Shown piece by piece: positions 1 through 13,199 of a DNA stretch of 13,199 nucleotides (position 1 is its first letter; each line of letters begins with the position of its first letter). The notes under the pieces were generated by a model. The model saw nothing but the letters and a program-made list of their open reading frames with translations, was not told where the DNA came from and made no database searches. The stretch spans positions 1 through 13,199 of IMG/VR virus record IMGVR_UViG_651053023_000013, one strand, 5' to 3'. A program made the translations under genes and the position numbers. The DNA is from a virus. Taxonomy: Duplodnaviria > Heunggongvirae > Uroviricota > Caudoviricetes.

Positions 1-160
1 AGTTTGCTCCTGCCATAACGTGAAGAAGCAATGACCTGGTGGTCCGTGACTTCCCTACGCTGGCATTATCCAGATCAGGTGATACGGGTATTTCTTACTG
101 ATTTTTGTTATCAGTTGATAATTAATAAGTTTTTCAGCAAACAAGAATTAAAAACTTCAA

Positions 161-184
161 AACTGACCACACAACTGACCACAC
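161..184. repeat. Perfect tandem direct repeat AACTGACCACAC x2 in an A/C-rich non-coding stretch
   Basis: Read directly: aactgaccacac at 161-172 and again at 173-184; no coding context. Confidence 0.6.
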
Positions 185-408
185 ATTTTGTTGAAGCTCT
201 ACGAACAAAGACGAACAATAACAAACAAAAGGGAAATTTGCTGGCAGTTTTGCTTAACCGTTATCATTTTTCGGCTATCCGTTATCAAGCTGGTGGATGA
301 TCACGGATAACCCGTTATGGGAATCCCCATATCGGCATCATGCCCACCAGCATGAAGTATTTTTCGCGGATGTAAAAATTTGACGGGGCGGGCGGTCCCA
401 TAAGCAAT

Positions 409-440
409 GGGGGGGTAGGGATTCCGCTCCCCCCCCTCCC
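409..440. other. G7 ... C8 homopolymer pair able to form a GC-rich stem-loop; T5 run follows about 10 nt downstream
   Basis: ggggggg (409-415) - tagggattccgct - cccccccc (429-436) - tccc, then gaatgcaattttt. Possible plus-strand intrinsic terminator or slippage-prone tract. Confidence 0.35.
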
Positions 441-474
441 GAATGCAATTTTTCTTATATATATACAAAACAGT

Positions 475-627
475 GCGGGTTATGCGGGTTAGCGGGTTAT
501 CTTCGCGTGCTAAGTATTTTTTATTCTTTAATATCAATGCGTTAAAAAATGATATGTTTGAATATTAGCCAAAACGTAACCCGCAAGACATTCAAAATAA
601 CCCGCAAATACCCCCCAAATAACCCAC
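475..627. repeat. Origin-like iteron module A: three abutting GCGGGTTAT copies, AT-rich spacer, three inverted ATAACCC(G/A)C copies at 21-22 bp phasing
   Basis: Direct copies at 475-483, 484-491, 492-500; AT-rich 501-574; inverted copies at 577-584, 597-605, 619-627. Same 9-mer and mirror-image layout as module B at 9640-9771. Confidence 0.6.
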
Positions 628-915
628 AACCCCATCAGGAAAATGGGGCCAGTGATGCCACCGAACGGCTGAATCTGGTAACGTTCTGTTGCCTGGTTGC
701 AGTTTGCGGGTCAGCAATACTGACGCACAAAGTTAGCCGTATGTGGCTGTGCGTCCACCAGCTACGCCGGAATGGGGTATTCCGTTTCAACGGAACAGGT
801 ATGACGAATATGATCGCACCTTCTCCCGAAAACGGGTTTGCCTGTTTCGGGAAAACGGGCACATGAAGCTGCATAGACATTTTCACTATTCAGGATCTGG
901 CGGGGGAGTTTCTCA

Positions 916-1085
916 ATTTCCACCGTTGGTGGAAATTAAACGAATACAGCGAGTTAGGACAAGGTGACTAATGGTCACTCTGTTGCTGCGTCACCATATT
1001 GATGATCCAGCCCTGTAGTCGCGCCACTTTTCCACCAATGGTGGAAAAGCCCACAGCAGGCCGCCCAGCCTCCCCCAATGGGGGA
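916..1085. repeat. Cluster of perfect palindromes sharing CCACC/GGTGG-type half-sites (candidate protein-binding sites)
   Basis: ATTTCCACC-gtt-GGTGGAAAT (916-936); GTGAC-aatg-GTCAC (965-978); CTTTTCCACCA-a-TGGTGGAAAAG (1027-1049); TCCCCCA-a-TGGGGGA (1071-1085). All read directly. Confidence 0.6.
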
Positions 1086-1190
1086 TTGTGGAAGAATCAA
1101 CGGGTTAGGCCTTAATCATCTGCGTAATCATAAGTAATCATAATGTTCATTCATCCAGCGCAATTTTGCGTTATCGGGAATATCAGCAAG

Positions 1191-1475
1191 TTACCGCCGC
1201 AACCGCTCCGGCTTCTTCCAGTGGTAAGTTATTTTTTCCTTCTCCCGGTACATCTCCACGCGGCGACGATATGACAACAACTCCAGAACTCTGATCCGTA
1301 TGTCGCGCATATCCACGCCGTTAAGCTCAATACCGTCACGGCGCATCACCTCAGCCACCACACGCGCGTAATTTTCGGCTATCACGCTGTCCGGCTGCGT
1401 GGCCTCCTGTTTGCCTGCTTCCTGGCTGATTCCGGTAATGCGGCGGATTATTTTTAGTAGTTCGGTTTCGCTCAC
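1191..1475 (-). CDS. Hypothetical small basic protein (94 aa) immediately downstream of the large terminase
   Basis: ORF starts with GTG 5 nt after the terL stop, with only a weak GGGG upstream; basic C-terminus; no recognisable motif. Confidence 0.35.
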   Translation of the reverse strand: MSETELLKIIRRITGISQEAGKQEATQPDSVIAENYARVVAEVMRRDGIELNGVDMRDIRIRVLELLSYRRRVEMYREKEKITYHWKKPERLRR

Positions 1476-1480
1476 TCTCG

Positions 1481-3142
1481 TTATACCCCATCAAACGCCG
1501 CAAGCCGCTCTTTGTGGCTGTCGCTCATATCGAATGCAAATTCCTCATGTTCTGCCTGGAATGTGCCAAACGCCATCAGCGCCGCAACGCTCGGGTCTAT
1601 CTTGTTGGATGATTTTTTCTTGTTCGGCTTGATATTGGCGTTCGCGTCACTCTGCATCACAACATTACTCATTGACCAGGCCAGCACCGGATCGCCACGA
1701 TGCACAATCACCTTCCGGTTAACAAAAACTTCGAACGATTTCGCCGCCGGACTGAAACGAAGGTATGTTTGCGGGAACGGCTCCACCTCAAATCCTGCCC
1801 CCTGTAGCTGCGTCCTCAGGTGCGTGGCGTTCCATGTATCGAAGCCCACCAGCCTGATATTGAAATTCTCTGCATCCGCCATGATGTCATCACGGATACG
1901 GTCATAATCAATGCAGTCACCCGGTGTTGTGCGTATCCAGCCCGCCTTTACCCACTGGCGATAGATGGCGCGGTTTTTATTGGCGGGGTTCTGTAGCTGA
2001 AACTCCGGCAGATAGTGACGGGAAACCAGCATAATCTTTTTACCGACCGGAAAGGCATAGCACACGCTGGAAATATCGCTGGTTGATGATAAGTCCAGCC
2101 CCGCGTAGCACTCCTGCCCGTATAAATCCGCCTCCGCGAACGTTCCGGCGCACTCCGCCCATGCACCGTTACCCATCCACGGCGTGGCCCCCTGACACCA
2201 GATATTGAATCGCTTGGTGAGCATTTCCACCCACTGCGACGGAATACCCCGCGCTTTCTGGATGGTTGAGGCCAGTTTTTCACGATCGACGGAAACATCG
2301 ATATTGGGATTCGCCTTTATCCACATCGCCGGATCGTCAACCTCGCTTTCATCATCCAGCTCGTAAATCAGCACGAACATGGATTCGTTCACCTCTTCAC
2401 CATCCAGTATCTGGCAGCAATAGTCGTAGTGTTGTTTACAGGCTGAAACAACGTTGCTCCCCGATGTGGTGATGGCAAATAATAACCCCTCCGGACGCGC
2501 CCCCATTCCCAGTTCAAGCGCGGAATAAACCCCGTTGTCAGGGTGCAGGTGATATTCATCCACAATGGCAAGACTCGGGTTTGTACCTTCAATGGTTGCC
2601 GCTTTTGCTGCCAGTGGCTTTAACAGGCTGTTGGTTTTCGGGTGTATCACCTTGTGTGCCTGAATATTTACCCGCTTTCGCAACGGTCGGGATAAAAGGC
2701 ACATCTGACGCGCATCATCAAACACGATCCGCGCCTGATCACGACTCACGGCGGCGGTGTAAATATCCTGCTGCCCGTTTTCCATAACCAGAAACCAGTT
2801 AGCCAGGATAGCGGCGACCGTGGATTTGGCATTTTTTCGCGGCACTTCAATGAATGCGCTGGTGTATTTGCGCCGTCCGGTGGCCTTAACCTTAAAGCCC
2901 AGGATGCACGCAAAGGCGAACTGCTGCCACGGCTCCAGCTCAATGGGGCTACCGCGCATTGCGCCTTTTACGTGCGGACACACCCTGGAAAAGGCAATAA
3001 ACCGCTCCACGACCTCCGGATCGAACGTGTAAAGGGGGTTTTCAAGGTCAGAAAAATACCGTTTAACGGCCTGTTTCAGTCGTTTACAGGCCGTAATTTT
3101 GCCGTTTTTTACGCCTTCTGCGTACTCATGCCAGGCGGTCAA
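1481..3142 (-). CDS. terL: Terminase large subunit (HK97-type, Terminase_1-like ATPase/nuclease)
   Basis: 553-aa ORF with a P-loop-like VPRKNAKST and conserved acidic blocks (LAIVDEYH, VLIYELDDESEVDD). Apparent TTG start at 3140-3142, preceded by GAGGA at 5-nt spacing and overlapping the terS stop by 17 nt. Confidence 0.9.
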   Translation of the reverse strand: MTAWHEYAEGVKNGKITACKRLKQAVKRYFSDLENPLYTFDPEVVERFIAFSRVCPHVKGAMRGSPIELEPWQQFAFACILGFKVKATGRRKYTSAFIEVPRKNAKSTVAAILANWFLVMENGQQDIYTAAVSRDQARIVFDDARQMCLLSRPLRKRVNIQAHKVIHPKTNSLLKPLAAKAATIEGTNPSLAIVDEYHLHPDNGVYSALELGMGARPEGLLFAITTSGSNVVSACKQHYDYCCQILDGEEVNESMFVLIYELDDESEVDDPAMWIKANPNIDVSVDREKLASTIQKARGIPSQWVEMLTKRFNIWCQGATPWMGNGAWAECAGTFAEADLYGQECYAGLDLSSTSDISSVCYAFPVGKKIMLVSRHYLPEFQLQNPANKNRAIYRQWVKAGWIRTTPGDCIDYDRIRDDIMADAENFNIRLVGFDTWNATHLRTQLQGAGFEVEPFPQTYLRFSPAAKSFEVFVNRKVIVHRGDPVLAWSMSNVVMQSDANANIKPNKKKSSNKIDPSVAALMAFGTFQAEHEEFAFDMSDSHKERLAAFDGV

Positions 3143-3481
3143 GCTCGTCCTCTTCCTCTGTTTCCGGTGGATTTCTGCGGCGACTTACCGGGTCAAAACC
3201 CAGCAAAGAAGCCATTTTGATCATTATTCTTTCCGCGTCAGCCTTTGCGCTCAGGGCGGGGTTTCTGCTCTCGCTGCCCTGACTGTTAACAATGCTGAAC
3301 CCGCGCGTGGCAAGGTCTTCGACGGCTTTGCGGTATATGGAGTAGTTAACGCAATAAGCTCCAGATTGCTCCAGTCGGCGGGGGTAAGGTCTTCCCGTCC
3401 GGAAAGCTGGCGCGATTTTTCCTTCCACTGCCTGACCGCGATTTCATCCAGGTAAGCGGGGGCTTTTGGTGGTCTTGCCAT
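3126..3481 (-). CDS. terS: Terminase small subunit, P27-like family, split across two reading frames (apparent -1 frameshift near 3345-3365)
   Basis: N-terminal part (ATG at 3479-3481, MARPPKAPAYLDEIAVRQWKE...LTPADWSNLEL) is in one frame and stops at 3251. The family-typical C-terminal part (AYCVNYSIYRKAVEDLATRG...MASLLGFDPVSRRRNPPETEEEDELDRLA) is in the adjacent frame and ends at 3126 overlapping terL. No slippery heptamer at the junction. Confidence 0.6.
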
Positions 3482-3599
3482 GTTCTTTTTTCGCCCAATT
3501 ATTTTCAAAAAAAATCCCGTGCACAAAAATTTGAGGAGGCGGTCGGTGTCCGGCAGGGACGGTTTGTCCTGAAAACCTCCCCCACCCCCTCTGACAGCC

Positions 3600-3785
3600 T
3601 CACCAGCGATTGCGAAAACATTCCATGACCTCGCGGTCACGGTCGGTTAATTGCTTCGCTGTGGTGCGTTCTGTGCGCCCTGTCCTGTTGGCTTTGTGCC
3701 CTGTCTCCTGTGTCTTCCATAAGTCACGCTGCCTTATCAGTCCACGTATCAGCCTGTTTTGCTCCTGTTCAGTCATCATCGCCAT
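3600..3785 (-). CDS. Hypothetical small basic protein (61 aa) between HNH and terS
   Basis: ATG at 3783-3785, 9 nt after the HNH stop; weak ribosome-binding site; no recognisable motif. Confidence 0.3.
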   Translation of the reverse strand: MAMMTEQEQNRLIRGLIRQRDLWKTQETGHKANRTGRTERTTAKQLTDRDREVMECFRNRW

Positions 3786-3796
3786 ACATCCAGTCG

Positions 3797-4210
3797 TTAC
3801 GGTGTGCCGCCCGTTCTTCCTGCTCGCGATACATGACCCGCCTTACGGTTCGCTTTCGTGGCTGGATCTTCCCGTGTCGTCTTACGGTTGTGGCACGTCT
3901 GGCACAATGCCTGGTGATTCCACTCAGGCCAGAAGAGAACATCACCGCCGCCATTGATGGGAATGATGTGATCCACCACAAGAGCTGGCGTATAAATCCC
4001 CTTAGCCAGACAACGCACGCATAACGGGTTTTTGCTCAGGTACAGGGCGCGGTATTTGTCCCACTGTCGGGAATACCCGCGCGCGCGGCGGTGTCCCCGT
4101 CTGGCATCCTCTGCACGCCATGCAGCCCGCCTGTGCTCTTCACACTTTCCGGACTTCACGCGCTTATTACAGCCCGGCTCAGTGCAGCGCCTTAATGGTT
4201 GCCACGGCAT
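3797..4210 (-). CDS. HNH endonuclease (packaging-associated)
   Basis: N-terminal Cys cluster CTEPGCNKRVKSGKCEEH, then HNH core VVDHIIPINGGGD ... WNHQALCQTCHNRKT. ATG at 4208-4210 overlaps the adaptor stop (ATGA). Confidence 0.9.
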   Translation of the reverse strand: MPWQPLRRCTEPGCNKRVKSGKCEEHRRAAWRAEDARRGHRRARGYSRQWDKYRALYLSKNPLCVRCLAKGIYTPALVVDHIIPINGGGDVLFWPEWNHQALCQTCHNRKTTREDPATKANRKAGHVSRAGRTGGTP

Positions 4211-5717: not shown

Positions 5718-6278
5718 TCACAACCCCGCCAGCTCTGCCCAGCGATGACGATTATTTCCTGCCGGGCGTAATTCAGGGTGCTGTGCAAACAACGAACGGT
5801 GGGCAATCTCCACGCCAGATTCGGGATAAGCAGGCATCGACGTGATCGTGATTTCCCTGAGTTCTGCAGCGGTAACAGTACGCAGATACGGTTTTTGCGC
5901 GATATTCCACTCTTCGCATAATGCGCGAAAGCCAAAGCTCATCCCTGTAATGTCGCCACGCTCCACCAGCGTAAGCACATCTTTTCCAAGCTGGGTATCA
6001 GGCGGTGTCAGTTCAAAACGTAGCCCGGTGTTGTCCTCAGTCAGTACCAGAGTGCCGGATTTGGTGCGCCCCAGCAGTTGGGTATAGTCATGCTCATACA
6101 GGCAGCGCACATCATTACCCGCCGCCAGATAGTCAGCAAAAGCCCCCGGCGTGAACTGTTCGCGGAATTCGTCCCAGATAATTTCTGAAAGGCTGTTCCA
6201 GCGAACGGCATACCCCACCAGCTTTTTATTGCTGGCGGTCAGTTCAGATGTGCGGATTTCAAAATCGGTGTTTTTCAT
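5718..6278 (-). CDS. Prohead maturation protease (HK97 family, S78/U35-like)
   Basis: 186 aa, placed between capsid and portal; typical HK97 protease length and sequence character. ATG at 6276-6278. Confidence 0.85.
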   Translation of the reverse strand: MKNTDFEIRTSELTASNKKLVGYAVRWNSLSEIIWDEFREQFTPGAFADYLAAGNDVRCLYEHDYTQLLGRTKSGTLVLTEDNTGLRFELTPPDTQLGKDVLTLVERGDITGMSFGFRALCEEWNIAQKPYLRTVTAAELREITITSMPAYPESGVEIAHRSLFAQHPELRPAGNNRHRWAELAGL

Positions 6279-7572: not shown

Positions 7573-7621
7573 CGGCATCTCGCAGATCAACCCGGCATCG
7601 CGCAGGGGGTCAGGCGGCATT
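7573..7621. promoter_or_regulatory. Three direct CGGCAT(C) repeats at 20-22 bp phasing upstream of the capsid operon (candidate activator sites for a late promoter)
   Basis: cggcatctcgcag (7573-7585), cggcatcgcgcag (7593-7605), cggcatt (7615-7621), in a GC-rich block 70-120 bp upstream of the capsid ATG. No good sigma70 -35/-10 lies between the block and the ATG. Confidence 0.35.
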
Positions 7622-7726
7622 GTGGCGGCTCACGTCTGAGTGCCACACGCCAACATATACATAAAAATCAGTATGTAAACATCAGCCAGAATCACCGAAC
7701 AACCTGGAACAACCACGAACAAATAA

Positions 7727-7757
7727 TTTACAAAACCTGAAAAAAATGGCCTATTAT
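7727..7757 (+). promoter_or_regulatory. Putative sigma70 promoter of the AT-rich accessory gene
   Basis: TTTACA (7727-7732), 19-bp spacer, TATTAT (7752-7757); AGGA ribosome-binding site 6 nt before the ATG at 7789. Spacer is longer than optimal. Confidence 0.3.
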
Positions 7758-7788
7758 TGCTACCTCTGACTACAACAAAGGACGCATC

Positions 7789-8295
7789 ATGAATTTAAGC
7801 GCAATGGTATACCCTGATACTTTCATAATTAATGGCGAATCATTTAAAGGTAAAAGAAACGCAAAAGAAAACAAGGTATTAATTCCATATACAAATGAAC
7901 CGGAAGTAACTATTGGTCAACACATTATCCAGTGTGTCGGTAAAAACGAGATAAATCTAAAAATTATAGATATGAAGTTGCTTCCCAATGGAACCCTCAG
8001 ACAGGGAACCAACCATCCAAATATGTTGACGCTCTATATTGAAAATATCACGGGAAATGAACATATGACGCCACCTAAAAGTAATACATTTAACATTGGT
8101 TCAATTAGTGGTAATCAAGTGCAGATAGGTGAGCATAACCATATGCTGGTAAACATCAGCATCACTGAACTGGTTGAAAAAGTCTCTAAATCGGGGGATG
8201 TACAAGCCAAATCAGTATTAAAGCAGTTACTGGAAAACAGTACCGTTGCCAGCATTGTTGGGGCTGGCGCAAGTGCCTTAATAGGCTTACTGTAA
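7789..8295 (+). CDS. Unrecognised 168-aa protein with C-terminal hydrophobic glycine-zipper segment; AT-rich accessory gene (moron)
   Basis: Only credible plus-strand gene inside the island. Roughly one-third GC by eye against about half in neighbouring genes. Own promoter, ribosome-binding site and terminator. C-terminal ...NSTVASIVGAGASALIGLL is a likely membrane anchor. Internal NIGSISGNQVQIGEHNH is not assignable from memory. Confidence 0.7.
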   Translation: MNLSAMVYPDTFIINGESFKGKRNAKENKVLIPYTNEPEVTIGQHIIQCVGKNEINLKIIDMKLLPNGTLRQGTNHPNMLTLYIENITGNEHMTPPKSNTFNIGSISGNQVQIGEHNHMLVNISITELVEKVSKSGDVQAKSVLKQLLENSTVASIVGAGASALIGLL

Positions 8296-8303
8296 AAAAA
8301 TGA

Positions 8304-9639: not shown

Positions 9640-9771
9640 GCGGGTTATAATCGCACTTTTGCGGGTTATAACTGCCGTTTTGCGGGTTACGTGCGGGTTA
9701 TTGATTTCCTTTTTATTCATACAGTTAATGCACTTATATACATGATAACCCGCATAACCCGCATAACCCGC
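9640..9771. repeat. Origin-like iteron module B: four GCGGGTTA(T/C) copies at 21/21/11 bp phasing, AT-rich spacer, three abutting ATAACCCGC copies; immediately downstream of the primase-helicase gene
   Basis: Direct copies at 9640-9648, 9661-9669, 9682-9690, 9693-9701; AT-rich 9702-9744; inverted copies at 9745-9753, 9754-9762, 9763-9771. The primase stop is at 9795-9797. Confidence 0.7.
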
Positions 9772-9794: not shown

Positions 9795-11918
9795 TTAATC
9801 TTCTGCCTCAGGCTGGAACATCAGCACGTAAAAAACATGCTGCTTCCCCCCAATTTTGCCGAGCGCCTTTTTCTTGTAACGGCGATCGTTACCCGCTTCC
9901 AGCATTCCGGCAGCACTCAACGCGCGGGCAAAGTGAGACGGATTAAATCCCTGTGCTATCTCACCCTCAAATACATGCGGGAACGTGTAAAAACGGAACT
10001 CGTCATCTTCGTTTCTGATACTCCCCTTTCTGTATCCGGCAAGCTCTTTAATCGGTAAATCACGCTCGTCGGTGTTGGGCCACGGAAGGTATCTGCTGAA
10101 TCCGAACGACGCTAAAAAAGCCTCTGCCTGTTCAACCATCTGTTTAAACTCCCTGTTACCCGTGCCGAACTCCTTCACCCAGGCATTAAAATTATGCTGA
10201 ATGGCATCGCGGCACGCCTGAACATCCCAACCAGTAATATGGACGGAAAGCACCAGCGCCGACTCCAGCATGGCGAATCGTTCCCCCACACGGTGAACCT
10301 GTTCGCCGTAACTCTCCGGTATCAGGTTGCGCCACCGTTCACGGCATGCCCTTACCGTATCCTTTGCCTCCTGCTGGTGGTCTGCCAGCCATTTAACCCA
10401 TTCACGCCCCGCCGCCCCGTGATTTTCTGTCCAGGCATCCTTTAACGCGTCTGCGTGTGCCTTTCCGGTGCTGTATTCGTGAAACTGCGTGGCTTTTTCC
10501 ATTGGCACGTTAAGCAGGCGGACAAGCTGCCCCGCCTTGACTTTTATCCCCTCCGTTTTGAGGAATGTCTCAACGTCCATTTCTCCGGTGCTGATTGCCA
10601 CCGTGCGCCAGTGTTTGATCTCCCTGTTGCCGCCGTCCTTCGCCCCCTGTAATTTCCCCGAACCGTTAAACAGCGTATAAGCCGACGTGGACACTTCCCG
10701 CGCGTTTCCGGCCTGACCTATTTCATCCAGGGGTAATAGCCCGTCATTGTGCGCCTCTGCCTCGTTGGCGATGCCTAACGCTGTACCGTACCAGGTCAGC
10801 CGTTGCGCGTCCGGCTCTCCCCATAAACTGGATGCGATGTTCTGTGTGGTGGTTTTCCCTGCCGATGACTGTTCGAAAAGATGTACCCCGAAGCCGTCAG
10901 CACCCACCAGCCCGATTAATGGTGCGGATAACGATACCGCCACACCCAGCATCATGGACGGATTACCACCAGCCAGCCGCGCAACGATATCGCGCCAGCC
11001 CTCCGCCGTTCCTGCCACGGAATAGCCATTAACAGCAGCCGTTTTTCCGGTAAACAGGACTGGCTTTTCGCAATCACCAATGACCGAACCGTCCGGCATG
11101 ATGTACGCGCCAAAATGCCAGCCCGTTGTTGTGCTTAACTGCCATTCCTCATGGCTTCCGCTTAACTGCATCCAGTCAGCCAGGATAGCCCTGTATTTAC
11201 CGTTGGTTGTTACGTTCAGTCCGTGGTCTTTCAGCAACCGCCAGCCGTCACGGTCGCCAATGCCACCGCACGGAACCGCCATTGTGATGACTTCATGGTT
11301 TGCTAATTTTTTCCAGCGCATCACGCGGTAATGCTCTTTACCGATTGTCCCCGTTCCCAGTAGTTCAAGCGGGGAACATAACCACGTCTCAGGCCGGATA
11401 ATTTCGCCTGACTGCTTATCCACTTTTGGCGTTACCCAGAAAACACCATCGGCGCGACTTTCAACGCGGGGCTTTAATTCATCATCGCCCTGGATTTCTG
11501 TGATTTTTTTCTTTAAGGGCAACACCAGACTTTCCCCGCGCTCGTATTCGTCTTTGAGGCGAGGCAACTGGTCGGATAAATCCGCCGGGCTGATGTCAGT
11601 TATCCCCGCGTATTCGTATACGGTCTTCACGCCAGCCACAGCCAGCAACGTGACGATCTGTGTAAGGCTACGTTCAGTGATGTGCCCTGCGCGGTAAACA
11701 CGCACACACTGACGGCTATCATCAATAATTTGATAACCGGTAATATCTTTCAGGTGTTCATCTGACAGAACGACAGGCGGCACATTGTCGGCGGCAATAT
11801 GCTTACCTGCCCATTCCTGCCACTCTTTCGCATGGCTCCACGCATCACTACCCGCAAAGATGATAACCTCCGTCATTTTGTCGGCTGGCTGGTGCTTTAA
11901 GTTTGGTGCGCGCTTCAT
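9795..11918 (-). CDS. Replication initiator: Toprim-like primase N-terminus plus DUF927/SF3-type helicase-like domain
   Basis: 707 aa; P-loop FEQSSAGKTTTQNIASSLWG and Walker B-like LLPLDEIGQAG; N-terminal region resembles a Toprim primase fold. ATG at 11916-11918 overlaps the upstream stop (ATGA). The iteron module follows directly. Confidence 0.8.
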   Translation of the reverse strand: MKRAPNLKHQPADKMTEVIIFAGSDAWSHAKEWQEWAGKHIAADNVPPVVLSDEHLKDITGYQIIDDSRQCVRVYRAGHITERSLTQIVTLLAVAGVKTVYEYAGITDISPADLSDQLPRLKDEYERGESLVLPLKKKITEIQGDDELKPRVESRADGVFWVTPKVDKQSGEIIRPETWLCSPLELLGTGTIGKEHYRVMRWKKLANHEVITMAVPCGGIGDRDGWRLLKDHGLNVTTNGKYRAILADWMQLSGSHEEWQLSTTTGWHFGAYIMPDGSVIGDCEKPVLFTGKTAAVNGYSVAGTAEGWRDIVARLAGGNPSMMLGVAVSLSAPLIGLVGADGFGVHLFEQSSAGKTTTQNIASSLWGEPDAQRLTWYGTALGIANEAEAHNDGLLPLDEIGQAGNAREVSTSAYTLFNGSGKLQGAKDGGNREIKHWRTVAISTGEMDVETFLKTEGIKVKAGQLVRLLNVPMEKATQFHEYSTGKAHADALKDAWTENHGAAGREWVKWLADHQQEAKDTVRACRERWRNLIPESYGEQVHRVGERFAMLESALVLSVHITGWDVQACRDAIQHNFNAWVKEFGTGNREFKQMVEQAEAFLASFGFSRYLPWPNTDERDLPIKELAGYRKGSIRNEDDEFRFYTFPHVFEGEIAQGFNPSHFARALSAAGMLEAGNDRRYKKKALGKIGGKQHVFYVLMFQPEAED

Positions 11919-12893: not shown

Positions 12894-13199
12894 ATGGCGA
12901 CTACCAACAAAAACGCTAAATCACAATTGACCACCGTCAGAGTCCCCCACGATGTTATGGAGGGCATGGAATCCGTAAAACTGGACGGCGAAAGCAACGC
13001 CGGATTCATAGTAACCGCCATGCGCGGTGAGATCGCCCGCCGCCAGGCAGAAGGAAGCGGAGAAAATCCCCTGGTTTCTTCGCTCGATGCACTGGCGCAG
13101 GTGGAAAAAATTGGAGTCAAGGCTGCCGAGGAGATCGGGCAACTCGTCGCCGTCGCGCGTGAAGAACTCCAGCGCCGCAAGGCCAAAGAATCAGAATAA
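12894..13199 (+). CDS. Putative ribbon-helix-helix-type DNA-binding regulator (101 aa), divergent from the replication operon
   Basis: Strong ribosome-binding site GAGGAG (12880-12885), 8 nt before the ATG. N-terminus LTTVRVPHDVMEGMESVKL...NAGFIVTAMRGEIARRQ fits a beta-strand/helix/helix pattern; helical C-terminal extension. Fold assignment is by pattern only. Confidence 0.45.
   Translation: MATTNKNAKSQLTTVRVPHDVMEGMESVKLDGESNAGFIVTAMRGEIARRQAEGSGENPLVSSLDALAQVEKIGVKAAEEIGQLVAVAREELQRRKAKESE

Follow-up and report, generated by a model that had tools for sequence, protein, structure and literature searches.

A mirror-image iteron unit, probably a displaced half of the replication origin, at the far end of a capsid-forming PICI of Escherichia coli

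The origins of PICIs have been described as single iteron/AT-rich units located just after the rep gene (PMC6092414). The window analyzed here, a stretch of 13,199 nucleotides that corresponds to positions 2530495 to 2543693 of the E. coli UMNF18 chromosome, contains one such unit next to rep (module B) and a second cluster of the same iterons (module A, positions 475 to 627) close to its other end, beyond the terminase genes. The question raised by this locus is what such a cluster could be doing so far from rep and whether it belongs to the replication system of the island that carries it.

The island and its two iteron units

In the RefSeq annotation of the surrounding 33 kb, the window falls within a single island located between thiM and rcnR. 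On the minus strand, the island genes follow in the order integrase (beyond the window), hypothetical gene, HTH regulator, Icd-like gene, DUF4222, and rep; after module B come the genes for SSB, ProQ/FinO, capsid, protease, portal, connector, HNH, TerS, and TerL, the HNH/TerS/TerL packaging region ending in TerL at positions 1481 to 3142 (minus strand). Beyond TerL lie a gene for a 94-aa hypothetical protein and then 1.1 kb of noncoding DNA that holds module A. With its int, alpA-like HTH, and rep genes, its own set of genes from capsid to TerL, and no tail genes, all according to RefSeq, the UMNF18 island is a capsid-forming PICI (cf-PICI), and its gene set matches the one published for such elements (10.1101/2022.09.08.507074). 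The TerS (P27 family) and HNH genes, at positions 3126 to 3481 and 3769 to 4210, are annotated as frameshifted pseudogenes in UMNF18, and these frameshifts may have cost the island self-packaging by its own terminase.

The left boundary of the island is marked by the 14-bp att core ATACGGGTATTTCT at positions 82 to 95, inside the TPP riboswitch of thiM; comparison with the empty K-12 site located the same core again beyond the integrase gene. Module A is thus inside the island, 380 bp from its att boundary. A direct repeat of ∼55 bp (AAAACTGACCACACAACTGACCACACATTT.GTTGAAGC.CTACGAACA) is also found near both ends (window positions 161 to 215 and about 30875 to 30930 of locus L001) and probably represents arm-type sites of the integrase; islands with other integrases have different repeats there, such as ACTACACC, which occurs twice in L003 and in L004. 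The insertion has disrupted the riboswitch aptamer (window positions 1 to 126): with Rfam family RF00059, the score drops from 71 bits for the intact K-12 site to 31.7 bits, under the gathering score, for what is left beside thiM in UMNF18. Since the 5′ half has been moved ∼16 kb away, to beyond the integrase gene, the regulation of thiMD is probably altered. Rfam and tRNA scans of the window gave no match at gathering thresholds.

Module A comprises six copies of the 9-mer GCGGGTTAT, each with no more than one mismatch. Its outer arm (positions 475 to 500, plus strand) consists of three abutting iterons, GCGGGTTAT, GCGGGTTA, and GCGGGTTAT, that start at positions 475, 484, and 492, with spacings of 9 and 8; in nine E. 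coli islands it is invariant except for one variable column. The A+T-rich spacer that follows (positions 501 to 575) is 75 bp long, is presumed to be the unwinding region, and has an A+T content of 73%, versus 49% for the whole window. The inner arm (positions 576 to 627, minus strand) contains three inverted iterons at positions 576, 597, and 619, phased at 21 and 22 bp; the third of these has a G-to-A change that sets UMNF18 apart from the other eight E. coli copies compared. Within the window, GCGGGTTAT is matched 21 times with at most one mismatch (3.2 matches expected), a number reached by none of the 200 dinucleotide shuffles of this sequence, and 13 of these 21 matches sit in the two clusters that make up modules A and B.

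Module B (positions 9640 to 9771), located 24 bp 3′ of rep, includes four phased iterons on the plus strand at positions 9640, 9661, 9682, and 9693, a 43-bp spacer with 74% A+T (positions 9702 to 9744), and three abutting iterons on the minus strand at positions 9745, 9754, and 9763. This is exactly the published description of a PICI origin, namely, two iteron sets that flank an A+T-rich region immediately 3′ of rep (PMC6092414). Module A shares the opposed iteron sets around an A+T-rich region, with three copies on either side, and, through the 9-mer it has in common with module B, indirectly the iterons of the island's own Rep, but it lies 9.2 kb from the rep stop codon. In an alignment of module A with the reverse complement of module B, the iterons pair copy for copy. 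The original prediction had described this swapped, mirror-image layout correctly, apart from giving the spacer as 74 bp. It had also stated that the two modules bracket the replication and packaging region, which is true of the genes from SSB through TerL but not of rep, which lies outside this interval.

The rep gene (positions 9795 to 11918, minus strand) codes for a 707-aa primase-helicase of the DUF927 family (Pfam, 5.9e-46) that matches PHROG 1139 (DNA primase). Among solved structures, it is similar to chains 8tch_A, “Pathogenicity island protein” (E = 8.8e-14), and 5dgk_A, “Active helicase” (E = 0.0017), which, together with the DUF927 assignment, places it among the self-loading helicases of the SaPI-Rep/MCM-like kind. 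SaPI Reps recognize their iterons with a winged helix at the C terminus and are self-loading at origins of this layout (PMC9371898). In the UMNF18 Rep, the putative iteron-reading domain is formed by residues 612 to 707 (positions 9798 to 10085, minus strand), which diverge in step with the iteron (see below). An AlphaFold2 model of Rep, built from a 14-sequence alignment, had a pLDDT of 46, too low to show whether the C-terminal domain is a winged helix.

Adjacent and displaced units in related islands

A search with a profile of Rep homologues yielded 80 loci, with rare exceptions from genomes of Enterobacterales species, sampled at one genome per species with 10-kb flanks. The iteron of each locus was identified de novo in the 500 bp after rep, and the locus was then scanned for its own iteron. 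This allowed classification of 70 of the 80 DUF927-Rep loci, the classes being approximate, as they are based on hit counts. In 43 of these 70 islands, which come from many genera, a B-type and an A-type unit adjoin each other 3′ of rep, forming a composite origin with ∼12 iterons, a count in which kinship among the loci inflates the apparent independence of the cases. The B-type unit of such an origin contains two or three abutting copies, an A+T spacer, and three or four phased inverted copies; the A-type unit is its mirror image and ends in three abutting copies followed by a TTTT..TATATATA..AAAA edge. The iteron itself varies by lineage (GTTGGTTCA, ACGGGTTAT, AGTGGGTTA, TGTTGTCCC, GTGTTGTCT, TCGTGGTTC, GTTGTACCA, GGTCGGGTA, TAGTGTGTC, and others) and is always the same in both halves.

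The remaining 27 islands have a B-type unit alone beside rep. When only loci whose downstream flank spans 9 kb or more are counted, 7 of 19 single-unit islands have a distal unit downstream, as opposed to none of 34 composite ones (Fisher P = 3e-4). The original prediction had proposed checking whether related islands keep both modules; they do so side by side in the 43 composite cases and at a distance in these seven. The other 12 of the 19 single-unit islands showed no distal unit within 10 kb, which makes the second unit dispensable for some relatives. All seven distal units are of the A type, in mirror orientation, and carry the iteron of their own island, CTTGTCCCA in Escherichia albertii and GTTGGTTCA in Serratia (two loci), Rosenbergiella, Lonsdalea, Chimaeribacter, and Pantoea. 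Together with the six E. coli islands described below, the distal unit uses the island's own iteron in 13 of 13 cognate split islands; scanning the 70 loci with 15 motifs revealed a single, weak noncognate cluster. No second rep is encoded in the loci with distal units. In islands whose ends could be placed by att repeats, 0.4 to 3 kb separate the distal unit from the island end; in the split islands of other genera, these repeats are clear in L033 (29 bp) and L042 (19 bp) and weak elsewhere. Two loci have additional clusters: in Yersinia pekkanenii L028, three large clusters, all of one iteron, fall into a 6-kb stretch and rep is partially duplicated, and Symbiopectobacterium L088 has an extra six-iteron unit (positions 784 to 904) 11 kb upstream of rep.

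Among 5,426 complete E. coli genomes, 300 contain DNA similar to module A and 252 contain DNA similar to module B; a search of a plasmid collection with window positions 360 to 680 returned no match. The split arrangement was found in six E. coli islands with DUF927 Reps (L001, L005, L006, L007, L091, and L093), which have module B beside rep and module A at the far end, 6 to 10 kb away, both with GCGGGTTAT iterons. These six islands occupy four integration sites and differ in their cargo, which is of the cf-PICI or Rpp type or consists of genes for very large hypothetical proteins. The last variant is seen at the ygeQ site, where three very large genes (about 600 to 935 aa; L006 positions 17206 to 24553 and L093 positions 14383 to 21469), unnamed in L006 and generically named in L093, replace the packaging module between B and A; these may constitute an anti-phage or other cargo system. 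In the O157:H7 island of the EcCIEDL933 type, the equivalents of both units (A′ and B′), again with GCGGGTTAT iterons, lie side by side immediately downstream of rep, oriented to each other as they are in UMNF18, and the island end lacks a module A.

Module A also occurs, with intact GCGGGTTAT iterons, as an orphan at the ends of three other islands. L003 encodes an unrelated Rep of the D5_N/Pox_D5 type and has GGTAGACAG iterons next to rep, L092 encodes an unrelated Rep of the AAA_25 RepA type with rep-adjacent iterons CCTCACTTT, and L002 is a degenerate island. The orphan of L092 (ETEC1747, positions 13034 to 13194) contains four abutting iterons rather than three. The copies in L003 and L092, each beside an unrelated Rep that is paired with different iterons, imply that the presence of module A does not always mean its use by the resident Rep.

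Comparison of the Rep proteins points to the part of the protein that is likely to read the iteron. The Reps of L004 to L007, which share GCGGGTTAT iterons with UMNF18, are only 26 to 58% identical to the UMNF18 Rep over much of the N-terminal ∼150 residues, whereas their last ∼100 residues are 84 to 100% identical to it. The E. albertii Rep shows the opposite gradient, with 97 to 100% identity up to about residue 545, 72 to 73% from residue 545 to 611, and 38 to 39% from residue 612 to 686, and the iteron of both its rep-adjacent and its distal unit is CTTGTCCCA. The outer flank of the E. albertii distal unit, cos included, is roughly 85 to 90% identical to that of UMNF18, as estimated by eye from the alignment, and the iteron block within it cannot be aligned to the UMNF18 block. 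In these comparisons, the iteron type goes with the sequence of the C-terminal ∼100 residues of Rep, in the distal unit as well, and the C-terminal swap in E. albertii points to a specificity domain of ∼100 residues. The two E. albertii units are only 2.3 kb apart, so that a single recombination tract of ∼3 kb, rather than two selected events, could explain their joint switch.

The nine E. coli copies of module A also differ little in their iterons. Variable positions account for 3 of 53 iteron columns versus 39 of the other 100 (Fisher P = 3e-6), the latter being distributed between the spacer (30 of 75) and the gaps between the phased copies (9 of 25). In the three orphans taken alone, none of the 53 iteron columns varies, compared with 10 of the 100 others (P = 0.015). 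As judged from this pattern of substitutions, the module A iterons are under purifying selection.

The terminal cos and the role of module A

Module A is not the only conserved feature of the island end. Positions 362 to 399 (plus strand) are 97.4% identical to the annotated cos-site region of the Stx2e phage phiP27, which in the phage genome lies between the HNH and TerS genes, and include the 10-nt cohesive-end sequence GGGGCGGGCG at positions 385 to 394, 80 bp from the first iteron of module A. A diverged member of the same family, also found in other cf-PICIs, occupies positions 3525 to 3550 (plus strand) of the HNH-TerS intergenic region. Thus, the UMNF18 island carries two predicted cos sites of the phiP27/HNH-dependent family, one internal and one terminal. 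The terminal type is present in Rpp-type and cargo-only PICIs as well, which suggests that these might be packaged by phiP27-like helpers; the occurrence of module A in the same islands shows that it is not tied to the island's own terminase. An alternative assignment, in which GACGGGGCGG at position 383 was taken for a lambda-like cos2 of the EcCICFT073 type and module A for its cosB, was rejected, as this sequence aligns poorly with the lambda cos junction and belongs to the phiP27-type cos, and as the actual lambda-like cos1 and cos2 of the CFT073-type island are found at other places, on the opposite strand.

Between this cos and module A, abutting the outer arm, is an A+T-rich near-palindrome, TTTTTCTTATATATATACAAAAC (positions 445 to 474). 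A TTTT..TATATATA..AAAA near-palindrome forms the edge of every A-type unit examined, whether composite or displaced, including those in L010 to L083, and in the composite islands the start codon of the next gene follows 10 to 40 bp past it. This element may serve as a promoter, as a further site of unwinding, or as a target for a protein; a scan of window positions 1 to 1500 with the sigma-70 consensus found no promoter. Terminal cos, TATATATA element, and module A together make up a block of ∼340 bp (positions of about 340 to 680) whose copies are spread over five integration sites, accompany Reps of three unrelated families, and have unrelated outer flanks. The same type of cos accompanies the distal unit in E. 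albertii and lies about 300 bp from it in Lonsdalea, and the distal units of Serratia, Rosenbergiella, Chimaeribacter, and Pantoea are found without a phiP27-type cos.

Some 70 to 135 bp from the terminal cos, on its TerS-proximal side, a 19-nt element is directly repeated at a 21-bp interval (TTTTGCTTAACCGTTATCA and TTTCGGCTATCCGTTATCA at positions 248 to 266 and 269 to 287), and an inverted CCGTTAT is present at positions 312 to 318. The CCGTTAT motifs at positions 258 to 318, previously interpreted as weaker half-copies of the iteron, are indeed present, but they are members of this separate repeat family. Their reading as degenerate iterons was discarded, since the repeats vary independently of the iteron in related islands; some islands that retain module A lack them. 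They could represent a terminase-binding (cosB-like) array.

Taken together, these data indicate that module A is probably a cognate Rep-binding origin unit, one of the two mirror-image halves of a PICI origin, which has been displaced from its partner. This interpretation draws on its architecture, its complementarity with the composite origins, the constant mirror orientation, the use of cognate iterons in at least three specificities, the tracking of the Rep C terminus by the iterons, and the purifying selection on the latter. In most relatives, the two halves adjoin each other 3′ of rep; in UMNF18, the A-type half lies ∼9 kb from module B, at the other end of the island, and the accessory and capsid/terminase genes occupy the interval. 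The C-terminal domain of Rep is expected to bind the three abutting and three helically phased 9-mers, after which the 75-bp A+T-rich spacer would melt and Rep could load itself as a helicase, as SaPI Rep does at its single “iterons-AT-rich-iterons” origin; Rep bound to module A might also pair with Rep bound to module B. By analogy with SaPIs, in which one unit is a complete origin, module A most likely acts as a second full initiation site. The same choice is favored by the consideration that a separated half-origin firing a single fork could not replicate a circle.

Some chance, albeit a clearly smaller one, should be given to module A binding Rep without initiating replication, as an auxiliary or regulatory partner of module B. 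It could then be required in cis for Rep-mediated looping, in the way that P4 crr works with ori or the gamma iterons of R6K with the alpha and beta origins, serve as a negative handcuffing or titration site, or act as an operator for the adjacent TATATATA element. The evidence for cognate binding applies equally to such a partner, phage P4 provides a precedent with primase-helicase iterons in two arrays 4.5 kb apart, and, with the TATATATA edge 10 to 40 bp before the next gene in composite origins, bound Rep could control transcription. However, module A has the full layout of an origin, including a spacer as A+T rich as that of module B, which a mere binding array would not need, and no sigma-70-like promoter was found at positions 1 to 1500. 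Besides, pairing and initiation are compatible with each other.

The recurrence of the block at positions ∼340 to 680 in unrelated surroundings and its near-exact phiP27 cos allow for another reading, in which module A is a passenger of a terminal cassette that spreads via cos, and its iterons are idle for the resident replicon. This is improbable: even in the orphans, the iterons are far better conserved than the spacers, and in L005 it is the cos core that has decayed (two mismatches), with all six iterons intact. Further, E. albertii and Lonsdalea have the same type of cos beside a different iteron, that of their own island, and distal units of other genera do without this cos. Selection on the iterons and their switching inside a conserved flank thus make a pure passenger role unlikely. 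A related, somewhat less doubtful, but still speculative idea is that the ∼340-bp block is a portable replicate-and-package cassette acting in cis and used in trans by the DUF927 Rep of a coresident satellite. An island that acquired it could be amplified by the Rep of another satellite and packaged by the terminase of a phiP27/HK97-like helper. If so, satellites would be hitchhiking on other satellites, which would explain the orphans with intact iterons in islands with unrelated Reps.

The proximity of module A to the cohesive-end sequence and the recurrence of this linkage in E. coli, E. albertii, and (at about 300 bp) Lonsdalea could also be taken to mean that module A is an accessory of the packaging site that helps the terminase at cos or couples replication to packaging. 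This is very unlikely, given that A-type units are mostly found beside rep, far from any cos, as in the 43 composite origins. In addition, cf-PICIs have a cos of their own in the HNH-TerS gap, the iterons covary with the Rep C terminus and not with the terminase, and module A is on the HNH side of cos, with the TerS gene on the other side. Finally, module A is close to the edge of the window, and the original prediction had considered that it might be the origin of an adjacent tandem element with an initiator just outside. The DNA left of position 1, which was to be checked for this reason, contains thiM, thiD, yegX, and other host genes, with no initiator gene in the annotation and no sign of a second element. 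The att core and the ∼55-bp arm-type repeats delimit one island that extends from positions 82 to 95 to beyond the integrase gene, and the empty K-12 site confirms the junction, leaving hardly any likelihood for a neighboring element.

Resemblance to other replicons

The displaced-unit arrangement combines features of several known systems. As in the origins of SaPIs and other PICIs, the Rep is a self-contained primase-helicase homologous to the solved pathogenicity island Rep, module B follows rep after 24 bp, modules A and B each consist of opposed iterons around an A+T-rich spacer, and the iteron specificity maps to the Rep C terminus, as it does in SaPI Reps. The differences are that the UMNF18 units are doubled in mirror orientation, that each is asymmetric (abutting iterons on one side and 21-bp phased ones on the other), and that the second unit is located at the island end, 9 kb from rep. 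EcCICFT073 encodes a Rep of another family, and in that system a fragment carrying only rep and ori is sufficient to maintain a plasmid (PMC6092414). The same PICI has two cos sites (PMC6092414, PMC6739421) and so resembles the UMNF18 island, with its internal cf-PICI cos and terminal phage-type cos, in having more than one cos per element. However, the UMNF18 sites are of the phiP27/HNH-dependent rather than the lambda type, and the terminal one is linked to an origin unit. The papers searched, an incomplete set covered by text only, do not describe any PICI origin that is doubled or split.

Similarly to P4 ori and crr, modules A and B are iteron arrays for the same initiator, located kilobases apart on a satellite of ∼12 to 16 kb, with one array directly 3′ of the initiator gene (alpha in P4) and near att and with both repeat orientations in each array. 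The earlier suggestion of a second cis-acting replication region like P4 crr captures well how module A may work: in evolution, it behaves as a cis-acting site, and it carries origin iterons of its own initiator at a distance on the same replicon. Yet the UMNF18 Rep is not homologous to P4 alpha: the BLASTP comparison gave E = 0.067, with no sequence similarity, and the domains of alpha are Zn_Ribbon_Prim, Toprim, D5_N, DUF5906, and Pox_D5, as opposed to DUF927. Moreover, crr consists of two direct 120-bp repeats and is not a mirror copy of ori, whereas module A is a single unit that mirrors module B. In P4, crr has been demonstrated to be required in cis.

Distant initiator-binding sites are also known in iteron plasmids, such as R6K, with its alpha, beta, and gamma origins, and P1, with incA-incC handcuffing. 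There, too, separated initiator repeats on one replicon could communicate through initiator-mediated looping, but the initiators are unrelated to the UMNF18 Rep, and none of the distant sites mirrors the origin completely.

The survey of related islands indicates that the origins of DUF927-Rep islands in Enterobacterales are normally double and mirror symmetric and that, in several lineages of iteron specificity, the second unit resides at the opposite end of the island. In Escherichia, this unit appears to be linked to a cos of the helper phage type and exchanged among islands with unrelated replication proteins. Should the distal unit fire or pair with module B, the models of satellite replication, copy control, and concatemer formation would change. 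In addition, a cognate iteron cluster could serve as a simple sequence marker for the far boundary of the variable cargo region.

Two minor features of the intervening DNA deserve mention. The segment from positions 7600 to 8300, with a G+C content of 33 to 38%, contains the sole plus-strand gene inside the island (positions 7789 to 8295), which codes for a 168-aa protein of PHROG 5789 and is probably a recently acquired accessory gene. At positions of about 900 to 1200, and at positions 5780 to 6210 of L004, there is a repeated short G+C-rich hairpin, such as TTTCCACCGTTGGTGGAAA at positions 917 to 935 and 1029 to 1047, followed by the pattern ATCAAC/ATCAGC..GTTA..C. These repeat units are located 3′ of the gene for the 94-aa protein in several types of islands.
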